Origin: Melittangium boletus DSM 14713 | GTDB lineage: Bacteria; Myxococcota; Myxococcia; Myxococcales; Myxococcaceae | Direction of reading: 5' to 3' | NCBI RefSeq assembly: GCF_002305855.1 | Contig: NZ_CP022163.1 | Span: forward strand, 7,003,765 to 7,067,764 | DNA length: 64,000 nucleotides | Shown: one piece after another, positions 3,001 through 61,590 of the stretch | How positions within the stretch are numbered: position 1 is the stretch's first letter | Layout: each line of letters begins with the position of its first letter | The notes under the pieces: model-generated | The model's input: only the letters and a program-made list of their open reading frames with translations | The model's database searches: none | Told to the model about the DNA's origin: nothing | Position numbers and translations under genes: made by a program

Positions 3001-3704
3001 GCAGCCGGGCGAACTCCCCTTCCTCCAGCACTCGGGTCCACCGCACCGAGGCCTCGGCGGCGGGCGCGGCGCGCGACCCGACCACCACCGGCTCGGGCCG
3101 GTCGGCCAGCCGTGCGAGCCACCACTCGCGGTCCTCGGCCAGTGCGGCCGAGTCGCGGTACGCCTGCTCGGCCGAGGTCACCTCGGCCAGGGCGGCCCAC
3201 CCGGTTCCGGGCACGACGCGCCCTTCCCGGAGGCACTCGTAGATCTCGGCCACGCGCCGCACGAGCAGCGCCATGCCCGCGCCGTCGAGGGCGATGTGGT
3301 GCACCCGCAGGAACACCCACTGCCGCTCCTCGGCCAGCCGCAGCACGGCACCGAGGAACAGCTCCTCGCCCGCCGCCGCGAGGCGCTCCGCCATCCACGC
3401 CCGCGCCGAGGCGATGGGATCGGGGGCCTCCCGGAAGTCCACGGTGGTGACCCGGGGTTCGGCGGAGTCCAGGACCCGTTGCCGGGGAAGGGAATCGGCC
3501 GTCTCCTCGAAGACCACCCGGACCGCCTCGCACTCCGCGGCGGCCCGCGTGAGCGCTGCGGTCAGCAGGTCGGTCCGGACGGTCCCGCACAGGTCCAGAT
3601 ACTCAGCCCACTGGTAGGAGCCGGGACGGCTGTACCCGGCGCGCTCGGCGAGCCACACACCGGTCTGGGCATCGGACAGTTCGAGTCTAGCGCTCTGGTC
3701 GACC
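1..3704 (-). CDS. Non-ribosomal peptide synthetase, 5' part (starter condensation domain then adenylation domain; continues beyond window start)
   Basis: Minus-strand frame is open from ~3704 to position 1. The translation starts with a C-domain ('ELSDAQTGVWLAE...VHHIALDGAGM' = HHxxxDG motif). It is followed by an A-domain ('LTYRELDARATALAARL', 'FTSGSTGTPKGVGVTHANLV', 'LTGGEIVLAPPG'). Candidate GTG start with GGTGAGGA upstream at ~3704. The ORF track omits it because it runs off the window edge. Confidence 0.8.
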
Positions 3705-3807
3705 ACGTGGGAGGTGTCCTCACCAGCTTGTGTGGGTCAGCGGGGCGCTCTTCTAGCACGGAATGTTTTGGCAAAAAGCAAAGTTCGAGTTTTCCCGTTT
3801 TAGCGCA

Positions 3808-4160
3808 CTATTGGAGGAGGGCGTCGGGCCAGCCCGCTGGACAAGCGGGGTCTCCGTGAGAAGGAGAGCAAGCCATTGGATGAGGCCACCTGCCTTGGGG
3901 ACCCTGCCTCTGCTCCTGGACAGCTCCCACCACCGGGCTGTTGATATACCCCCGGTCGATGTACAGCTCGTCCATTCCAATGCCTTGTCGCCTTATGTCT
4001 TTCTGGAGCTCCGGAGTGGCCTCCGCCTCGGGCCGGTTGGCTGGAGTGACGGTGCAGGCGACTAACGGGCCCATCTCCACCTCCGCGGCGATGTGCTGCT
4101 TGAACCCATTGAAGCGCTTGCTCTGGCTCTTGCGGCCGTGACGCATTTCGCTGTCTTCCA
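3808..4160 (-). pseudogene. Transposase remnant (IS1182/IS5-superfamily-like internal fragment)
   Basis: Minus-frame peptide 'MRHGRKSQSKRFNGFKQHIAAEVEMGPLVACTVTPANRPEAEATPELQKDIRRQGIGMDELYIDRGYINSPVV' resembles the conserved core of IS1182-type transposases ('MRHGRKSSSKRFDGYK...TPANxxD'). No intact N- or C-terminus. Local GC is lower. Sits exactly at the junction between the NRPS and the YD-repeat genes. Confidence 0.5.
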
Positions 4161-4342
4161 CCGACACTCGCTTGTCAGGTGCTACCGCCTGGTGGAACTG
4201 TCCGGGGTCCTTGGAGAGGGCGATCCCGAGAGCGGAAGTTGCGCGAGCCTTCGAGAAGAGCCGGCAGCGAGGCTCTCGATCTTCCGGAGCAGAGCGCGAT
4301 CCACCTCCCCACCTGGGTGAGGGTTCCAGTCGTTCAGGGCTG

Positions 4343-5662
4343 CTAGTCACACTCGTACTTGAAGTCGCGGCGCACCGGACCGTCGTCCAGGCCCGGCGTG
4401 CCCGAGTACTCCTCGTGCACGAGCCGTCCCTTGTCATCGCGCTCGTGGGTGCGCCGGGCATCCACGACGCCGTCCTGGTCGCTGTCCCACTCGTCGAGCC
4501 AGACGATCTTCGTGCCACACAGGTATGTGAGCCGGCGGGTGGTGGTCAGGTACGTGGTCACCAAAGGGTATTCGATGCCGGGGCCCGAGAGCTGGGTGTA
4601 GACCTTGCCAAGCCGCTCGAGCAGCAGCAGGCCCGAGGCGTCGTAATAGAGGGTCCGCACGAACTCGTGGCTGCGGTAATAGCCGCCGTATTTTTCCCAG
4701 CTTCGGAACACCCGGCGGGCCGCGTCGTGGGAGGTGACGGTGTGTCGGACATGCTCGAAGCCCTCCTCCTGTTCGTCCACGAGGTTGCCCCGGTCGTCGT
4801 ACAGGTTCGTGAAGCTCATGTGGTGGTCGTCGGTCCACGCGTTCTGTTTCACGTGGCCATTGGGCCAGTAGGTAAACGTCTCGCAGCGGGCGACTCTCAG
4901 GTCGCAGTCCGGCCGACTGTCGATCTCCACCAACTGACCCACCGCGTTGTAGTGGTAGACGATCGGGCCGTCCTGTCCGTTCGAGGTCTGGCGCTCGATG
5001 CGTTCGAGACGGCCCTTCGCGTCGCGGATGTACTGGTAGGAGCGGGGAAGGGTGGGCGCGTCGAACGTCTCGGTCCGCCGCGCGAGCCGGCCCGCGTCGT
5101 CATACGCCCACTCGATTTGGTCCCAGGAGCCCTCGGGGAACTCGAGGCGGCGGAGCGTTTCGTGGCCGTTCTTCCAGGTGTGGAACTCGGTCTCTTGCAG
5201 CGTGCCATCCGGCCCGTAGCGGCGCCGCTCCAGCAGGCGGCTGTCGGCGTCGTAGCGGGCCACCTCGCGGTCGCCGTTGGCGAAGACCGAGGTGCCCTCG
5301 CACGCCGTGGCGCGCACGGGCGCCACCTTCCCCTTCCAGGGCACACAGGCCACGGGCTTGAGGGTGGGGGAACCCTCGAGGCCCGCGCTCACGGGGGGAA
5401 CCTCGCCCGGCGACGGCGGGGGCTGCACCACGGGCACCGTGGGCTCCTGGGTGGGCGTCTCGGGCTGCGTCGAGGGCTCACCCGGAGGAGGCGCCTCACC
5501 CGTGGGGGGCGTGGACGCGGGCGGCTGGGCGGGCACGGGCGTGTCCGGGAGGGGCGCCGGGGCTTCGGGTGTGGGCCCTGGCGCGGGCTCCTCGCGCGTC
5601 GCACCACACCCCACGAGCATCGCGCACACGCTCCATCCCATCAGCCTCCAGTGCTTGCGCAT
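4343..5662 (-). CDS. YD-repeat (RHS-repeat-like) lipoprotein, paralog A
   Basis: Start ATG at ~5662 with GGAGGGGAG RBS. Lipoprotein signal 'MRKHWRLMGWSVCAMLVGCGA', then a Pro-rich linker. Multiple 'YDxxGRL'-type YD repeats ('ARYDADSRLLERRRYGPDGTL', 'YDDAGRLARR', 'YDDRGNLVDE'). The C-terminal ~60 aa are nearly identical to the divergently encoded paralog. Confidence 0.7.
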   Translation of the reverse strand: MRKHWRLMGWSVCAMLVGCGATREEPAPGPTPEAPAPLPDTPVPAQPPASTPPTGEAPPPGEPSTQPETPTQEPTVPVVQPPPSPGEVPPVSAGLEGSPTLKPVACVPWKGKVAPVRATACEGTSVFANGDREVARYDADSRLLERRRYGPDGTLQETEFHTWKNGHETLRRLEFPEGSWDQIEWAYDDAGRLARRTETFDAPTLPRSYQYIRDAKGRLERIERQTSNGQDGPIVYHYNAVGQLVEIDSRPDCDLRVARCETFTYWPNGHVKQNAWTDDHHMSFTNLYDDRGNLVDEQEEGFEHVRHTVTSHDAARRVFRSWEKYGGYYRSHEFVRTLYYDASGLLLLERLGKVYTQLSGPGIEYPLVTTYLTTTRRLTYLCGTKIVWLDEWDSDQDGVVDARRTHERDDKGRLVHEEYSGTPGLDDGPVRRDFKYECD

Positions 5663-5891
5663 TCCCATCTCCCCTCCGGTTGGTTGGCCGGCAAGGTGTG
5701 CACGTGGAGTGTGGGCGCCCATAGCCCCCGGTCGCTCGCTTGGGTACATGCCGAACGCTTGGCGACGGAAACGACATGAGGCGCGGACTCCACTCTACAC
5801 GCCTCCCATTCGCCCGATGCGTTGACTCCGGGTGAAGTCTTGTAGGGCGATGGGTCCATGAACACCTTCCCGCGACAACAGGGGAGGGAGC

Positions 5892-7157
5892 ATGGGACGG
5901 GGGCGGAGCGCATGGATGCTGGCCATGTGTCTGGTGGTGAGCGCATGTGGAAGCACGTCACCATCTCCCGCCGAGCCCACCGAGTCGGGGGAGCGGACGG
6001 GGCTGGGTCCGGGCGACGACCCGGCTGGCGGTGGCACGGTGTCCGGACTGGAGGGTGAGCCGTCCCTGCCGCCGCGTGCGTGCATCCCCTGGACGCGCCC
6101 GACGCCCCCGGTGCGAGCCACGGCGTGCGCGTCCTTCTCCGTGTTCGCGGATGGCTCCTCCGTGCGCGCCCGGTATGACGCCGACAGCCGTCCCCTCGAG
6201 GTGCGCGAGTTCTCGAGCGACGGCACGCTCCACACGGTGGAGACGCGTGTCTGGAGCGAGGGACTCGAGCGGCTGTACCGCCGGGAGGAGCTCGCGTTCG
6301 GCTTGTCCACCCAATCGGAGTGGACTTATGACGGCCGGCGGCTGCTGCGGCGCGTGGACTCGTTCTCGCACGACCCCCCGAAGACGTATGACTACGTCTA
6401 CGACGCCCAGGGCCGTATCACGCGCGTCGTGCGCCAGTGGTCCGGGGAGTCGGTCACGAGTCTCTACACCTACGACGTGCAAGGGCGCCTGGTGCGCATC
6501 GCCGACGAGCAGAGCGATTGGCTGTGCGGCTCGGGGGACAGCCGATGCGCGAGCCTGTCCTATTGGCCCAATGGTGTGCTCAAGCGCCACGAGTGGGAGA
6601 CCGGGAAGATGAACTTCGAGGAGGAGTTCGATGCGGCGGGCCGGCTCGTCGGGTCGCTCGCGCAAGACCCGGACCACCTGAGGCGCCGCCAGCTGGGCTA
6701 CGACGAGGCGGGGCGTTTGCGCCGGGAGTGGCGCTTGCACTCCTGGTACGTCTGGGACGCCACCTCCGTCACGCGCACCGTCTACGATCCCGCGGGGCGG
6801 CGCGAGCGGTTCGCGGAGGAACTGGCGGACTATGGCGAATGTGGGGCCCGTTTGCCGGATTGCGAGCCGGAGCGGAGCTCCGTGCACGTCACCCGCCGGA
6901 CCACCTTTTTCTGTGGCACGGAGATTGTCGCGCTCGACGAGTGGGACGGCGACGAGGACGGCGTGGTGGATGCCACGCGTACGCACGAGCGCGATGACGC
7001 GGGCCGGCTGGTGCACGAGGTGTACTCGGGCACGCCGGGACTGGATGACGGGCCCGTGCTGCGCGACTTCACCTATGAGTGCGCCCCGTCCGGCGTCGCT
7101 CAGACGCAGGGCGATGCCGGTGGTGAAGCCCGCGCCCGCGCTGCACAGGTGAGGTGA
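5892..7157 (+). CDS. YD-repeat (RHS-repeat-like) lipoprotein, paralog B
   Basis: ATG with GGGGAGGGAG RBS. Lipoprotein signal 'MLAMCLVVSACGS'. YD repeats ('ARYDADSRPLEVREFSSDGTL', 'YDAQGRITRV', 'YDVQGRLVRI', 'YDEAGRLRRE'). C-terminus 'WDGDEDGVVDATRTHERDDAGRLVHEVYSGTPGLDDGPVLRDFTYEC' matches paralog A. Confidence 0.7.
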   Translation: MGRGRSAWMLAMCLVVSACGSTSPSPAEPTESGERTGLGPGDDPAGGGTVSGLEGEPSLPPRACIPWTRPTPPVRATACASFSVFADGSSVRARYDADSRPLEVREFSSDGTLHTVETRVWSEGLERLYRREELAFGLSTQSEWTYDGRRLLRRVDSFSHDPPKTYDYVYDAQGRITRVVRQWSGESVTSLYTYDVQGRLVRIADEQSDWLCGSGDSRCASLSYWPNGVLKRHEWETGKMNFEEEFDAAGRLVGSLAQDPDHLRRRQLGYDEAGRLRREWRLHSWYVWDATSVTRTVYDPAGRRERFAEELADYGECGARLPDCEPERSSVHVTRRTTFFCGTEIVALDEWDGDEDGVVDATRTHERDDAGRLVHEVYSGTPGLDDGPVLRDFTYECAPSGVAQTQGDAGGEARARAAQVR

Positions 7158-10135: not shown

Positions 10136-10608
10136 AACCAAAGAAGAAGAGTCCCGAGGCTTCGCAGCCAGATTTGAAGCCCATTCAGTGCGTGTGCACG
10201 AACTTGAAGATGGCTTCACGCGTTGTGGGCCGTGCGTATGACCTGGCGCTCGAGGAGAGCGGCGTGAACGTCATCCAGTACTCGATCTTGATCAACGTCT
10301 CGCGCTACCAGCCCATCTCCCAGATGCGGCTCGCCGAACATCTCGAGATGGAACGGACGACTTTGTACCGTGCGCTCGACATCCTCGAAAAGAAGGGCCT
10401 CGTGGCCTCTGAATCGAACGGCGAAGGCGTCGCGAAGGTGGTGCGGCTGACCGCTCGCGGGACAGACGTCACGTCCGCTGCTGCGCGAAAATGGAACTTG
10501 ATGCACGAGGGGTTCCTGTCGAAGTTCGGCCCCCGGAGGCTCAAGGAGCTCAATGCGCTCCTCGGCGAAGTTCGAGACCACTTCAAGCACGTCAACCCCT
10601 CCACCTGA
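10132..10608 (+). CDS. MarR-family transcriptional regulator
   Basis: Winged-helix MarR pattern 'VNVIQYSILINVSRYQPISQMRLAEHLEMERTTLYRALDILEKKGLV...VRLTARG'. TTG start overlaps the EamA stop. Alternative ATG at 10213. Confidence 0.75.
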   Translation: MKPKKKSPEASQPDLKPIQCVCTNLKMASRVVGRAYDLALEESGVNVIQYSILINVSRYQPISQMRLAEHLEMERTTLYRALDILEKKGLVASESNGEGVAKVVRLTARGTDVTSAAARKWNLMHEGFLSKFGPRRLKELNALLGEVRDHFKHVNPST

Positions 10609-10612
10609 AGGT

Positions 10613-10884
10613 GATGTCCGCGTGAGGCGCGAGGATGGTGCCCCAGAAGCCGTAGCTGGTGGCCTCGATCTTCGTGGTGTCGACGAAGTTGAAGAGGACG
10701 CTCTTCTGATTGATGCCACCGCTGAATGACTGGCCGAGGTGGCGAACCGGGCGTACGCGCCCCGGATGTTGATGACGACGCGGGAGTTGACCGGCGCGTT
10801 GATGGAGAAGTCGTTCTTCCGGCCGAAGACGCTGGTGTCCACGTCCTCGGCCACCTGGGAGACGCTCTTGCCTCCCTCGCACAC
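10613..10884 (-). pseudogene. Choice-of-anchor-A domain fragment (frameshifted)
   Basis: Two adjacent minus frames give '...NDFSINAPVNSRVVINIRGAYARF' and 'SGGINQKSVLFNFVDTTKIEATSYGFWGTILAPHADITF'. Together these match the choice-of-anchor-A pattern (VVINV-G...LFNFP...GSILAP-A). No start and no signal peptide. Confidence 0.4.
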
Positions 10885-10929
10885 TGAAGCTCCGCCTCTT
10901 CCTTCTCTCCATGGACACTACCTCTCGTG

Positions 10930-11085
10930 TAGCCGACTTATGCGGTATGTCCACTAAAACGCCTCTCCCGCACTTCATGTGCTCCATGAGCCGTCCAAGA
11001 GCGGGACTCCTGCTGCTCCGTCGCACGCGACTCGCCAGCCGAGCAGCGAACACACAAAGTGCGGGAGAGCCACTAAAGCGGGGCA
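10930..11085. repeat. MITE-like element copy A (terminal inverted repeats CCGYTTTAGTGGCTCTCCCGCACTTT)
   Basis: Left arm 10933-10970 ('ctaaaacgcctctcccgcacttcatgtgctcc'). Right arm 11043-11070 ('acaaagtgcgggagagccactaaagcgg') is its reverse complement. Second copy at 57787-57967. Confidence 0.5.
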
Positions 11086-11108
11086 GGCTCACCCCGAGGT
11101 GCTACGTG

Positions 11109-12137
11109 ATGCGTTGTTCACTGGTGCTGCTCTGCTTGGCCCTGATGGGGTGTGGCGGCGCTGCTCCAAGCGTCCGTCATACGCCGGATGAGCAGAGGCG
11201 CTGTGTATATGTCCCGTCCCGTGACGAGGCGGCCGGAGCCTGGAATGAGACGGTGCCCTCCGCTCACGCGGGTGTGAACGTGGTGCTTGTCGCGGCGACG
11301 GCGGGGGCTTCGCCCGTGGCTCCCCCTGCCCCAAGTCCGGCTCCTGCCCTGGAATGGCTGTCGGGTGAGGGGTTGGGGAACGGCATTCCCCGGGGCGTGC
11401 TCCGGTTGGTGCCTGAAGGAGGCGCGGGCGCGGAGGTAGGGGCTGGCGGAGCCGCAGGGGAGACGGTGGTGGTGGGGGGAGCGTTCGTCGCAGCCGTTGG
11501 CAGTGGGCTGCTGGTCTGCCTGACGGCTCGTGCGGCCCTGGATGGGGAGAAGACCCCCATCGAGATTGCGGACGAGTATTACGGCACACACTTCGGAGAC
11601 GTGATGGGGTGGGTTCAAGGTCAATACCCGGCCCAGGTTCCTCCTCCTGGCGCAGCGCCCAGGTCGAAACCCGACGAGAGCACCGGCAAGAGGCTGGGGC
11701 GCATCTATGTCACCTACACAAAGCTCAATAAGATGACCCACCGCTACTACGCGGGGCGGACCAGCATGGTCGTCGATCTTGCTGTGTCCCTCGAATTTCA
11801 GGCCGCACTGGCGGTTTTCCTCCGAGACAGAAACCACCACCTGGACGAGAATGCTGAACCGGGTGGCGCCATGTTCGGCTTGGCGCAGACTGATCGATTT
11901 GATGTCGGCACCGGGGTTGACTATAGCCGTCGATACGACGACGTCGCTTACTGGCGGATTCGCGGGAGAGAGCAGCAGTTGATTGATTCCCTTGGAGGAG
12001 CCCACGCTGACACCGGAGCGCCTTATCGCACCGAGAACGCCGTACGCGGCGTGGCGAAAGAAAATCCACAAGGCAGAAGGTTCCACTCCGCCGCGACGGA
12101 GTTGTGGGGCCAACTTCACCCTTACACGGGATACTAG
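11109..12137 (+). CDS. Lipoprotein, candidate OME-delivered (SitA-like) polymorphic toxin; function of C-terminal domain unknown
   Basis: Start ATG 11109 (GTG 11106) preceded by GAGGTG, lying inside the right arm of the MITE-like element. Lipobox 'LLCLALMGCGG'. Ala/Gly/Pro-rich linker, then a globular C-terminal domain. Followed 3 nt later by a small low-GC ORF. Confidence 0.55.
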   Translation: MRCSLVLLCLALMGCGGAAPSVRHTPDEQRRCVYVPSRDEAAGAWNETVPSAHAGVNVVLVAATAGASPVAPPAPSPAPALEWLSGEGLGNGIPRGVLRLVPEGGAGAEVGAGGAAGETVVVGGAFVAAVGSGLLVCLTARAALDGEKTPIEIADEYYGTHFGDVMGWVQGQYPAQVPPPGAAPRSKPDESTGKRLGRIYVTYTKLNKMTHRYYAGRTSMVVDLAVSLEFQAALAVFLRDRNHHLDENAEPGGAMFGLAQTDRFDVGTGVDYSRRYDDVAYWRIRGREQQLIDSLGGAHADTGAPYRTENAVRGVAKENPQGRRFHSAATELWGQLHPYTGY

Positions 12138-12139
12138 GG

Positions 12140-12595
12140 ATGCCGCGAATCTACAAACCGGGCTCGTTCTTGAGAATCCCCCTTGCCGACGGCTCCTTCG
12201 GTTACGGCAGGGTGCTCAAACTGCCGCATGATGCCTATTACGATTACAGGACCGACACTCCAGATTCCGATCTGGAGCGGATTGCCTCCAAGCCTATCCT
12301 TTTCAAGATCATGGTTCGCCATATGGAGGAGAGGGCATGGGAGTTCATTGGGTGGAAAAAGCTGGAGGAGCAGTTTTCTCAACCGGTCGTCCAGTTCATG
12401 CAGGACATTGGGAACCTCCGCGACTGCACGATCTTCGACACCGTCGGCAATTCGAGGCGCGCGGAGCCCCAGGAGTGTGTGGGACTTGAGCGCTCGGCTG
12501 TCTGGGAAGAGGTGGGAGTCGAGCAACGCCTGCTCGACTCCTTCATGGGGCGGCCCAACGATGACGTGGAGCGCGTGAAGGTGCGCCTGAAATAG
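12140..12595 (+). CDS. Small cytoplasmic protein, candidate immunity protein (Imm-like)
   Basis: 152 aa, no signal peptide, N-terminus 'MPRIYKPGSFLRIPLADGSFGYGRVL'. GC ~55% versus ~69% background. Tightly coupled to the upstream lipoprotein. Confidence 0.5.
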   Translation: MPRIYKPGSFLRIPLADGSFGYGRVLKLPHDAYYDYRTDTPDSDLERIASKPILFKIMVRHMEERAWEFIGWKKLEEQFSQPVVQFMQDIGNLRDCTIFDTVGNSRRAEPQECVGLERSAVWEEVGVEQRLLDSFMGRPNDDVERVKVRLK

Positions 12596-57382: not shown

Positions 57383-57739
57383 ATGAACGCTCCAATCTAC
57401 ACGCTCGTCCGAGGCGCCGACTGGCGGGCAGCCAAGACGGTGGGTGCCTACTGCGGCTCGGCCGACGACACGCGCGACGGCTTCCTGCACTTTTCCACGG
57501 CCGAGCAGGTGCGCGACAGCGCGCGCAAGCACCGCGCGGGGGAGCGAGACCTGTGGCTGGTGGCCGTCGATCCGGAGGCGTTGGGCGCGGCGCTGCGGTG
57601 GGAGCCAGCCTCGGGTGGCCGTCGCCCGGGGTTGTTCCCGCACTTGTACGGCCCGCTGCCGGTGTCGGCCGTGGTGTCGGCGGTTCCACTGCCGCTGGGC
57701 GGCGACGGGCAGCACACCTTCCCCGACGGGGTGCCGTAG
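57383..57739 (+). CDS. DUF952-domain protein (intact copy)
   Basis: 118 aa, 'DGFLHFSTAEQV...LWLVAVDPEAL'. Its 3' 336 bp are repeated at 59287-59623. Confidence 0.7.
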   Translation: MNAPIYTLVRGADWRAAKTVGAYCGSADDTRDGFLHFSTAEQVRDSARKHRAGERDLWLVAVDPEALGAALRWEPASGGRRPGLFPHLYGPLPVSAVVSAVPLPLGGDGQHTFPDGVP

Positions 57740-57786
57740 GGAGCGTTCAATCCCACTCCGCCGACGAGGCAGTCGTGGGCCTGATC

Positions 57787-57967
57787 CGTTTTAGTGGCTC
57801 TCCCGCACTTTATGTGCTCCGCGAACTGGAATGCTTTCTGCTCCAACAAGCGTTGCTCGCCACATGAGCGGTGAACATACAAAGTGAGGAGAGGCACGTA
57901 ACCGGCTCAAACCCGAACGCCACGCAGATGGCGAACCGCCTGCGACGGAGGAGAGCCACAAAATCGG
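57787..57967. repeat. MITE-like element copy B (same inverted-repeat family as 10930-11085)
   Basis: Left arm 'ccgttttagtggctctcccgcactttatgtgctcc' (57787-57821). Degenerate internal arm 57884-57905. Right arm 'ggaggagagccacaaaatcgg' (57947-57967) is the reverse complement of the left arm. Confidence 0.5.
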
Positions 57968-57990
57968 TTCAGAATCCATTGAAGGATATT

Positions 57991-58464
57991 TCATTCACCC
58001 AGCCAATAGAGACCGCGCCGGGTTCGCAGCACCTGCTCCAGGAACTCCGAGAGGGAACTGGCGACCTGCTTGCAGTAGGCCGGATCCGGCCACGCCTCGT
58101 GGTCGCCGTCGAAGAGGGGGTAGAGACCATTCTCCTGGCGACGCACATCTACCAGCACGTAGTTACCGTCCTGTACGTCGCAGAAGGCGAACACCGAGGC
58201 AGGACCCCACGTATCGTTATCCTCACCGTAGATGGCTACCCGTGCTCGGACGATCTCGGACAGGGGAAGCATCTGATACGGCGAGTTCGGCAGCCTCTTG
58301 ATCAACTCCGCCCCGTTGCAGTGCAGATAGAAGGCACGAAGGTCCGAGTCCAGCTTCCAGCCCACCCTCTGCTCGAACGCATCGATCTCCTCCGGCGTAG
58401 CAGGTGGATAGGGGAAGTGATCGCGGGAGACTTCCTCCAGCAGGCGGCTCATGGGCGTGGGCAT
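57991..58464 (-). CDS. SMI1/KNR4 (SUKH-1) family immunity protein
   Basis: 'TPEEIDAFEQRVGWKLDSDLRAFYLHCNGAELI...YQMLPLSEI...VFAFCDVQDGNYVLVDV' is a SUKH-1 pattern. No signal peptide. GC ~60%. ATG 58464 lies 3 nt after the toxin stop. Confidence 0.7.
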   Translation of the reverse strand: MPTPMSRLLEEVSRDHFPYPPATPEEIDAFEQRVGWKLDSDLRAFYLHCNGAELIKRLPNSPYQMLPLSEIVRARVAIYGEDNDTWGPASVFAFCDVQDGNYVLVDVRRQENGLYPLFDGDHEAWPDPAYCKQVASSLSEFLEQVLRTRRGLYWLGE

Positions 58465-58466
58465 CG

Positions 58467-59132
58467 TCAATTGTCTGTGTAGGGCAGATCGGGGCCCACT
58501 GTATTCCAGGGTGGCTGGCCGCCGTAGCACGCGGGATACGCCCTGTTGTACAGGTCGTGGACGCTGGGCTTCGCGGGGAAAATATTGTTGGGGTCCACTG
58601 GATTGCCTCCGTGCTGGAGGTCCCGGATGTGATGGCCGGGCCACGACTTGGTGCCATCGCCAGGCCACTCTCCAAATTTCTTGCTCCAGTCCTCCCGGAA
58701 GGACTCTCGAAATCTGTCCCACCTCTTGCGCTCCACTTCCTTCTTGTCTGTCGGCAGCTTGGGGTAGTTGCAGCAGCAGTGCCAGATGCCGTAGCGGCTC
58801 CCGGAATCAACGTCCACGGGTAAGAGGATGAGGCGGCCCTCCCAATCGAACTTGAGATCGGCCAGCCAAACGCAACCCATGAGCGGGGAACCTTCACTGG
58901 CGCACTGCATCTGGCACTGGTTCATGAATTGACGGCGGCACTGCCAGGGACCGTAGAAGAGGGTTGTCTTCATCCGTCCACCCGGAACCATCAGCCACGG
59001 CAGTTCCTTCTTCACAGCGGGCTTGGCCCCGGGTGATGGCGTGGGTTTAGTCCCGAGGGAACCGCTCGACTCGTTGATGGAGCCGCACGCGGCGAGGAGC
59101 ATCAGCAGTACCGCCGTCCAGTCCAGCTTCAT
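58467..59132 (-). CDS. Lipoprotein with C-terminal Tox-GHH (HNH/EndoVII-superfamily) nuclease domain; SitA-like OME toxin candidate
   Basis: ATG at 59132. Lipobox 'LLMLLAACGS'. Cys-rich middle region ('CRRQFMNQCQMQC', 'WHCCCNY'). C-terminal 'SWPGHHIRDLQHGGNPVDPNNI' matches the GHH signature. GC ~58%. Confidence 0.65.
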   Translation of the reverse strand: MKLDWTAVLLMLLAACGSINESSGSLGTKPTPSPGAKPAVKKELPWLMVPGGRMKTTLFYGPWQCRRQFMNQCQMQCASEGSPLMGCVWLADLKFDWEGRLILLPVDVDSGSRYGIWHCCCNYPKLPTDKKEVERKRWDRFRESFREDWSKKFGEWPGDGTKSWPGHHIRDLQHGGNPVDPNNIFPAKPSVHDLYNRAYPACYGGQPPWNTVGPDLPYTDN

Positions 59133-59286
59133 GAGAATCCCCCGTGATGATGGCCACCCCTTGCTGGGTAGCCAATTCGAGGGGATACCCGATGCGGCTG
59201 ACAACTCTCGGCGCTCGATACTCTCGGCGGCGTCCTCCGGGATCATCAAAAGCGCCAGTGTTTTGGCATAAGAGGGTGTGCCCGTC

Positions 59287-59623
59287 GCTCGTCCGAGGCG
59301 ACGACTGGCGGGCAGCCAAGACGGTGGGTGCCTACCGCGGCTCGGCCGACGACACGCGCGACGGCTTCCTGCACTTTTCCACGGCCGAGCAGGTGCGCGA
59401 CAGCGCGCGCAAGCACCGCGCGGGGGAGCGAGACCTGTGGCTGGTGGCCGTCGATCCGGAGGCGTTGGGCGCGGCGCTGCGATGGGAGCCGGCATCGGGC
59501 GGGCGTCGTCCGGGGCTGTTCCCGCACCTGTACGGCCCGCTGCCGGTGTCGGCCGTGTTGTCGGCGGTTCCGCTGCCGCTGGGCGGCGACGGGCAGCACA
59601 CCTTCCCCGACGGGGTGCCGTAG
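59287..59623 (+). pseudogene. 3' partial duplicate of the DUF952 gene (direct repeat of 57404-57739, ~96% identical)
   Basis: Nucleotide alignment shows ~14 mismatches in 337 bp, mostly synonymous. No N-terminal 5 codons and no start codon. Confidence 0.7.
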
Positions 59624-61517: not shown

Positions 61518-61590
61518 AGCGGCGGACCGGGTTCGAACCGGCGACCCCGAGCTTGGGAAGCTCGTGCTCTACCAGCTGAGCTACCACCGC
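61518..61590 (-). tRNA. tRNA-Gly (anticodon CCC)
   Basis: Reverse complement 'GCGGTGGTAGCTCAGCTGGTAGAGCACGAGCTTCCCAAGCTCGGGGTCGCCGGTTCGAACCCGGTCCGCCGCT' folds as a cloverleaf. 7-bp acceptor stem, D-arm GCTC/GAGC, anticodon loop TTCCCAA, T-arm GCCGG/CCGGT with TTCGAAC loop. CCA not encoded. Confidence 0.85.

Follow-up and report, generated by a model that had tools for sequence, protein, structure and literature searches.

Background

Among the mobile elements described so far, the closest to the two short repeats that are the subject of this study are the insertion sequences (ISs) of the ISL3 family, i.e. the IS204/IS1001/IS1096/IS1165 group. The repeats, copy A (positions 10961-11071) and copy B (57796-57895), lie in a stretch of 64,000 nucleotides from Melittangium boletus DSM 14713 (NZ_CP022163.1, 7,003,765 to 7,067,764, forward strand), which is referred to here as the window and in which each of them stands beside a lipoprotein toxin/immunity cassette. 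Our analysis indicates that both copies are, very probably, non-autonomous deletion derivatives, or MITEs (miniature transposable elements with inverted repeats), of an ISL3-family IS with a terminal inverted repeat beginning GGCTCTCCCGCACTT. Their full-length relatives have in common with the ISL3 family the DDE_Tnp_ISL3 and Zn_ribbon_ISL3 domains, 8-bp target duplications and a stop codon about 20 nt from the right end, and the GGCTCT... with which the inverted repeat starts is presumably the same as in many ISL3 members (ISfinder entries). Unlike these, the window copies are without a transposase, the clade to which they belong has a marked target consensus (CCC-N8-GGR) and is frequently nested in the ends of other ISs, and many of its copies carry additional, inverted outer blocks of 20 nt and no flanking duplications.

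With regard to size and organisation the two copies resemble the Correia elements of Neisseria, the RUP elements of Streptococcus pneumoniae and MITEAba12, all of about 100-150 bp, non-coding, bordered by terminal inverted repeats and a target duplication, dispersed in several copies, presumably mobilised in trans by a related IS and often situated just upstream of genes. They differ from them in the parent family, in their number, which is a handful per 12-Mb genome as against hundreds of Correia elements, and in that nothing pointing to activity as a promoter or as a processing site was found here.

A strong preference for a short structured repeat over random DNA, as displayed by the clade described here, is also known from other ISs: according to Bachellier, Clement, Wilde and co-workers, IS1397 and ISKpn1 of the IS3 family reportedly insert specifically into REP/BIME palindromes. 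In the present case the targets are the terminal regions of other ISs instead of host REP sequences, and the transposase is of the ISL3 family. Our literature search on ISL3 target specificity found neither the CCC-N8-GGR consensus nor the nesting in IS ends described, and a search on myxobacterial MITEs likewise yielded nothing relevant; of all that is described here, only the tendency of the clade to land in the ends of other ISs might be new.

The repeat in the window

The 19-nt core of the arm, CTCTCCCGCACTTTRTGTG, occurs three times in the window, at 10963-10981 (plus strand, one mismatch), 11051-11069 (minus strand) and 57798-57816 (plus strand), compared with 0.02 occurrences in shuffled sequences. 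Three sites were likewise obtained for the outer part, CCGYTTTAGTGGCTCTCC, namely 11064-11081 (minus strand), 57786-57803 (plus strand) and 57950-57967 (minus strand, two mismatches), where shuffling gave 0.06. Using a repeat finder, 11048-11092 and 57775-57819 were recovered as an inverted match of 45 nt (87%), and neither the core nor the outer block is found elsewhere in the 64 kb. The repeat is real and lies far above chance expectation. An earlier note on this DNA had described both copies as bordered by inverted arms of 25-30 bp; repeat and alignment are confirmed by our analysis, but the arm is not a single unit, being composed of the ISL3 inverted repeat, 8 bp of target and the partial end of another repeat.

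Relatives and full-length parents

Relatives were searched for in one genome per species with the pattern TAGTGGCTCTCCCGCACTT, which yielded 12 loci (two Cystobacter fuscus genomes accounting for five, Sorangium for one, and Chloroflexia genomes together with an archaeal bin for the other six), and in metagenomes with GGCTCTCCCGCACTTNNNGTG, which yielded more than 120; loci are numbered with the prefix L. No match to the element was obtained in a plasmid collection by blastn, and none to the arm core in viral contigs. Outside the repeat, the window and C. fuscus are about 70-78% identical.

Inverted pairs of cores spaced 1.75-2.0 kb apart were found at eight loci, seven of which (L021, L025, L045, L060, L100, L126 and L122) contain a single full-length open reading frame (ORF) of 547-586 aa between the cores, while the longest ORF of the eighth (L057) is a fragment of 237 aa. 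In six ORFs between paired cores, a close variant of ..KRQMYGRANFDLLRRRVLLAA is directly followed by the stop codon, which leaves about 20 nt to the right core; L060 and L126 have the motif too, extended by about 15 residues. The two ORFs that were tested, those of L025 and L122, match both DDE_Tnp_ISL3 (PF01610; E 3e-29 and 7e-25) and Zn_ribbon_ISL3 (PF14690). In addition, a 29-aa peptide next to a Chloroflexaceae arm (L008) matches positions 344-369 of the 370 positions of the NCBIfam ISL3 transposase model NF033550 (E 1e-7), and a protein search returned homologues from Myxococcus, Stigmatella, Archangium and Corallococcus that are annotated as 'ISL3 family transposase'. Five loci encoding such homologues (L133-L137) have the same cores at both ends, and their full-length copies carry outer blocks, too.

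Pairs of cores at a MITE-like distance of 100-290 bp are common among the relatives. Eight copies were aligned, comprising A and B of the window, four from C. fuscus and two from metagenomes; mean column identity is 70%, and the core measures about 101 bp in most of them. Pairwise identities range from 56 to 83% (A versus B, 65%), suggesting that the copies are old. What is left of the transposase gene can still be read at their right ends: in our own translation, copy B retains the C-terminus ..QQALLAT* (stop codon TGA), where the parents read ..RRRVLLAA*, the C. fuscus copy L009 keeps ..QRALLVA* including the stop, and the 3' part of copy A shows the trace ..LLLRRTRLAS.., the stop being lost.

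MITEs were one of several readings offered by the earlier note, and it is this one that is borne out. The copies are short (below about 300 bp) and non-coding, with the transposase gene reduced to its last few codons; their inverted ends match those of autonomous ISL3 elements (GGCTCTCCCGCACTT..GTG at both ends), which represent suitable parents; copies occur at several unrelated loci of C. fuscus and of metagenomes (L085 and L116), and copy A, but not copy B, is bordered by an 8-bp duplication (7/8). We propose that these MITEs have kept the two transposase-binding ends together with the last few transposase codons, that they would move only if the transposase is supplied in trans by a full-length relative, and that an 8-bp target duplication would be created upon insertion.

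Target duplications and target preference

Perfect direct repeats (8/8) abut GGCTCTCC in 17 relatives having both ends, including full-length elements (L025, GGTTTTTC; L100, GTTTCAGC) as well as MITEs (L093, L015, L044, L001/L003 and others). The mobile unit therefore starts at GGCTCTCC, with the 8-bp duplication that is typical of ISL3. A target logo built from 145 non-redundant arms is C-rich, or CCC, at positions -11 to -9 and A/T-rich at -6 to -3.

Of 16 clean insertions, i.e. those with a perfect duplication, six or more are situated within 110 nt upstream of the transposase gene of another IS and thus in its terminal region. An ORF matching HTH_Tnp_1 (IS3-type OrfA) is located 51-65 nt past the duplication in L025/L092, L093 and L100; an IS256-type transposase adjoins the insertion in L071 and a helix-turn-helix (HTH) transposase that in L055, and the flank of L001/L003 leads into orfA and orfB of an IS3 (HTH_Tnp_1, rve). 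If the MITE is removed from L001, the left end of the interrupted IS3 reads TGTGAC-TATAATAG-TGAGACAAC, in agreement with its own right end, TGTGTCAATGATT-TGAGACAAC. Two loci of a single Chloroflexia metagenome-assembled genome (MFD04780.bin.2.32), L001 (1379-3228) and L003, have this IS3 between different flanks, together with a 150-bp ISL3-type MITE in its left inverted repeat and the duplication ATAATAGT, which implies that IS3 and inner MITE moved as a unit after the MITE had entered.

The clade favours CCC-(8 bp, A/T-rich)-GG(G/A) as its target. Such sites lie about 12 nt inside the ends of other ISs, which accounts for the frequent nesting of the elements in IS ends.

Copy A and its flanks

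The core of copy A comprises 111 bp (10961-11071, plus strand); its left ISL3-type inverted repeat starts with GCCTCTCCCGCACTTCATGTG, the right one ends with CACACAAAGTGCGGGAGAGCC, and 22 of the 28 terminal nt agree between the two ends. Over 74 nt, positions 11009-11082 share 75.7% identity with the ISL3 element of L058 at its right end. The core is abutted on the left by ACTAAAAC (10953-10960) and on the right by ACTAAAGC (11072-11079), which are direct repeats of each other in seven of eight positions; by our own estimate the chance of at least 7/8 at fixed positions is about 4e-4. This target duplication explains why the left arm reads CCACTAAAACG where the consensus has CGTTTTAGTGG. While the inverted cores proposed earlier for copy A are thus present, its left arm consists of the inner core only, and the 8 nt before it are a direct and not an inverted repeat of the 8 nt after the right arm.

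Adjacent to the right duplication is a 12-nt outer block (11080-11091; TGAGCCTGCCCC on the minus strand), at which the likeness among copies ends sharply. This block is present on one side only. The other side continues with GGACATACCGC.., like verified IS3 ends, into what would be the interior of an interrupted second element, followed by a decayed and frame-shifted orfA-like start (10800-10952, minus strand; ATG 10913). The decayed ORF begins 47 nt further on with MERRKRRSFS.. and continues after a frameshift as ..EGGKSVSQVAEDV. Its matches to IS3 OrfA N-termini of other loci are weak (E 0.001 and 0.018 in a search space of 200 nt), and there is a 31-nt match to the IS3 orfA remnant of L133. 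The architecture TG..CCC-N8-GGAC agrees with verified IS3 left ends, and the outer block starts with TG, as in the IS3 geometry verified in L001, L025, L093 and L100. No Pfam match was found for the 33-aa orfA-like remnant, a 29-aa version of it had no match in plasmids by tblastn, and the likeness between the outer-block elements at copy A and at L137 is at the level of shuffled sequences past about 25 nt (score 68 versus 61.8 +/- 6.7). As judged from these sequence comparisons, the second element (outer block and 10800-10952) is a probable IS3-like remnant, and copy A would have entered the left end of this now-decayed element directly upstream of the lipoprotein gene.

Copy A had also been thought to supply the ribosome-binding site and the start of the lipoprotein. 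This is not the case, as the repeat ends at 11091, and GAGG (11096-11099) and the ATG (11109) lie 5-18 nt beyond it. An open frame from an ATG at 10911 to 12137 (plus strand) spans the whole MITE and runs into the lipoprotein gene, so that a gene caller could wrongly add 66 codons. On the other side, 10216-10810 (minus strand) is a frame-shifted remnant of a choice-of-anchor-A/pAdhesive_15-type gene fused to the orfA-like remnant; an intact-looking homologue in L002 matches PF20597 (E 2e-22).

Copy B and its flanks

Copy B has a core of 100 bp (57796-57895, plus strand), whose right end is degenerate and contains a 1-nt deletion. On the left it is preceded by an outer block consisting of TGGGCCTGATCC and GTTTTAGT (57776-57795, plus strand), on the right it is followed by ACGTAACC and GGCTCA (57896-57909, minus strand), a block which is inverted with respect to the left one and 6 nt shorter than in L009. 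Further to the right lies a solo end fragment (57947-57971, minus strand), made up of 11 nt of the ISL3 inverted repeat (GGAGGAGAGCC), then ACAAAATC, then GGTTCA. Between this fragment, which is separate from copy B and left over from a further insertion, and the stop codon of the SUKH immunity gene there are 19 nt. The earlier note had extended copy B over 57787-57967 and assigned it an extra degenerate internal arm. The arm sequence does exist, but it is the true right end, and the far-right 'arm' is the solo fragment.

L009 and copy B share 78% identity in a stretch of 132 nt that takes in about 35 nt of flank, so that L009 is not independent of copy B. The latter would represent an older copy with foreign end blocks on both sides. 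Since the two window copies are only 65% identical and degenerate, both are most likely inactive relics at present.

Outer blocks and double-block copies

The recurring block of myxobacteria consists of TGAGCCTGCCCC (variant TGGGCTTGCCCC) plus 8 nt, with unrelated DNA beyond its TG, and the 12-mer, with up to 1-2 changes, flanks copies at unrelated loci. We regard one locus as decisive for taking this block to be probably independent of ISL3: L137 from Myxococcus vastator reads TGAGCCTGCCCC GATTCCGT, full-length ISL3, GATTCCGT GGGCAC.., i.e. it has the block on one side only and a perfect 8-bp duplication. Copy A has the same geometry.

Several observations weigh against the derivation proposed here. 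No full-length parent is present within the 64-kb window, exact-core matches number 2-3 in each of two C. fuscus genomes, which is a low copy number, and the IS3 identity of the outer block of copy A depends on the weak matches mentioned above. Copy B has no 8-bp direct duplication, its flanking blocks being inverted, and the same double-block form without direct duplication is seen in L009, L010, L012, L030, L088, L107 and the full-length elements of L122, L133, L134, L135 and L136; inverted outer blocks of 20 nt with no duplication outside them are not the pattern of a simple ISL3 insertion. Moreover, the full-length copies of two genera, L133 (Archangium) and L135 (Stigmatella), have the same arrangement, with TGGGCTTGCCCC by the left end and TGAGCCTGCCCC by the right end.

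Such arrangements would be expected if a myxobacterial ISL3 subgroup had the whole arm of about 45 nt (12-nt block, 8 nt and core) as its true terminal inverted repeat, with elements and MITEs moving as this longer unit and the outer block having no origin in another IS. The sharp end of the likeness at the TG of the block fits with this possibility, as do L122 and L134 with near-identical blocks at both ends. We consider it doubtful, however. Around the outer blocks of 11 double-block copies, inspected by eye for duplications of 3-8 bp, there was one 3-bp match (L135), which is at chance level. In addition, L137 and copy A combine a one-sided block with an 8-bp duplication at the core, both forms occur within one and the same MITE family (L093, L015 and L044 versus L030 and L097), and the core is oriented differently, from locus to locus, with respect to the two block types. 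Finally, L133 is flanked on one side by interior sequence of a decayed IS3 (..LGVSRSGHYAWKGR..) and on the other by unrelated DNA, indicating rearrangement.

We therefore keep to ISL3-derived MITEs whose mobile unit starts at the core, and for the double-block form we favour hits in the ends of IS3-like elements which may have been followed by recombination between the inserted copies. Template switching ('snap-back') was considered as the main route to this form and rejected, as the symmetry stops at the same TG in nearly all copies and not at random points. In L012 (6556), what looked like an uninterrupted outer block is part of an ordinary gene and was discarded as a chance match.

The 'truncated arm' cccgttttagcgcact, reported earlier for 3773-3788, is actually situated 21 nt away at 3794-3809 (plus strand), where the ISL3 core GGCTCTCC is missing. 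Being similar to the outer block with 8 nt added, it may be a candidate for an uninterrupted end of the second element; the pattern was picked after viewing the sequence, so that its expectation of 0.01 is indicative at most. It sits just past the 3' end of a truncated transposase remnant (..RVSVEDSEMRHGRKSQSKRFNGFKQHI.., 3808-4350, minus strand), which resembles a 531-aa ORF of Sorangium (L011, 2361-3956) and, judged by motifs alone, appears to be IS5/IS1182-like.

Further observations concern the surroundings of other copies. At L133 of Archangium violaceum (1196-1209), a 14-mer, TGAGCCTGCCCCAG, identical to the outer block of the C. fuscus copies, falls within the part of a decayed IS3 orfA that codes for the HTH; it is 190 nt away from the ISL3 copy and may be either coincidental or a hint at where the block came from. 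Full-length ISL3 elements lie just downstream of a DUF2379 gene both in L136 (535-903, Corallococcus) and in L137 (955-1380, M. vastator), the flanking DNA of the two not being alignable. Head-to-head pairs of ISL3 ends were seen in L090 (3334-3376), L039 (~1665-1700) and L062 (~4290-4330), with a spacing of 8 bp (ATCATGAT, TGCACTCT) or 5 bp; these abutting ends look like circle junctions or like the outcome of an insertion beside an end already in place.

The toxin/immunity cassettes

Cassette A consists of the gene for a lipoprotein and candidate toxin (MRCSLVLLCLALMGC.., ATG 11109, lipobox LMGC; 11109-12137, plus strand), which lies outside the element, and an Imm26 immunity gene (12104-12595; Imm26 E 4.5e-13). 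Cassette B (57991-59132, minus strand) contains the SMI1/KNR4 (SUKH) immunity gene with its stop at 57991 (SMI1_KNR4 E 3e-22) and a lipoprotein gene, MKLDWTAVLLMLLAAC.., ending at 58467. The toxins of both cassettes have no match in Pfam or NCBIfam and may be called 'SitA-like' by architecture alone. The G+C content is about 60-62% for the two cassettes and 68.9% for the window.

An enrichment of the elements beside lipoprotein-toxin genes, which the earlier note had put up for checking, does appear in the few relatives at hand. L009 is located 670 nt upstream of a lipoprotein sharing its signal peptide with that of cassette B, a lipoprotein with an AHH nuclease domain (E 3e-18) has L116 immediately at its 5' end, the half copy L004 truncates a small lipoprotein whose N-terminus resembles, by eye, the cassette A lipoprotein, and L002 has a 49%-identical homologue of the latter 7 kb away. 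In this tiny and partly non-independent sample the proximity is more than chance. It is most simply explained by the cassettes residing in transposon-rich DNA, and the place of copies A and B would likewise reflect cassettes sitting in transposon-rich, horizontally acquired DNA.

The position of the copies at the edge of both cassettes, together with L009, L116 and L004 adjoining other lipoprotein-toxin genes, might also suggest that toxin/immunity cassettes are exchanged by a site-specific recombinase acting on the arms (as integron-attC-like or Xer-like sites), and an ORF adjoining the L009 copy (3082-3534) resembles, by eye, a tyrosine recombinase in its N-terminal part, albeit with no Pfam match. 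This second reading of the earlier note is highly improbable. There is no recombinase gene beside either window copy and no conserved recombinase partner; most relatives occur in unrelated contexts; the ends are GGCTCTCC/GGAGAGCC and, by inspection, not the attC core RYYYAAC...GTTRRRY or another site-like core, and their target duplications show the arms to be transposase ends. What brackets cassette B instead is a direct repeat of 300 nt (57402-57701 and 59286-59585, 96% identical), which encloses copy B and the whole cassette and contains a full DUF952 gene (57383-57739) and a second copy truncated at its 5' end (~59267-59623). This repeat looks like the footprint of a circular DNA from a donor about 4% diverged, integrated by a single homologous crossover (Campbell-type), rather than of an exchange mediated by the arms.

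A selected role as cis-regulatory hairpins that control the toxin/immunity operons, be it as a structured 5' leader, an attenuator or a terminator, is hardly credible for the elements: copy A does lie 17 nt upstream of the lipoprotein start codon, within any transcript from upstream, and both copies form long hairpins (-67 kcal/mol for A and -87 for B; z-scores -1.9 and -3.8), but the z-scores reflect the inverted repeat and that of copy A is unremarkable, no Rfam family matches either copy (a tRNA gives the lone Rfam match of the window), nothing like a promoter or a terminator is found around copy A, the stem is a transposon inverted repeat that is equally conserved in full-length ISs, the two mismatches in the stem of copy A are not compensatory, and the position is inconsistent, A being 5' of the toxin, B being 3' of the immunity gene and L004 interrupting a gene.

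Other features of the window include the gene of this tRNA (61518-61590, minus strand), about 2 kb beyond cassette B, and an inverted repeat of 192 nt (4350-4541 and 6890-7081, 83% complementary). The latter corresponds to the C-terminal ~64 codons of two paralogous lipoprotein genes arranged back-to-back (4343-5749, minus strand; 5892-7157, plus strand), with the shared end ..DEWDxDxDGVVDAxRTHERDDxGRLVHExYSGTPGLDDGPV...

Conclusions

The two elements are of an ordinary kind, i.e. ISL3-derived MITEs, degenerate and nested in other transposon debris. This removes a false lead, as the hairpins are transposon relics and not a signal for the control or exchange of toxin cassettes. The elements should be annotated as repeats, so that the ORF 10911-12137 is not taken for the lipoprotein gene.

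As a tentative and rather speculative extension, the ISL3 clade may, together with its MITEs, have specialised as 'IS-end hunters', inserting some 12 nt into the terminal repeats of IS3, IS256 and other elements and riding along in a host IS that is still mobile. Repeated hits, in both ends, and recombination could then strip away the host IS and leave forms like copy B, and in myxobacteria the nested debris might mark the edges of toxin/immunity cassettes and promote their turnover by homologous recombination.

Loci of the sitA type outside Mx-alpha typically adjoin mobile elements (Vassallo et al., PMC5562445), and the window adds a concrete example to this published link between such loci and mobile DNA. 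For transposon specialists, an ISL3 clade with a defined target consensus that is found repeatedly in IS ends, with a MITE that can be carried inside a mobile IS3, may be of modest interest.

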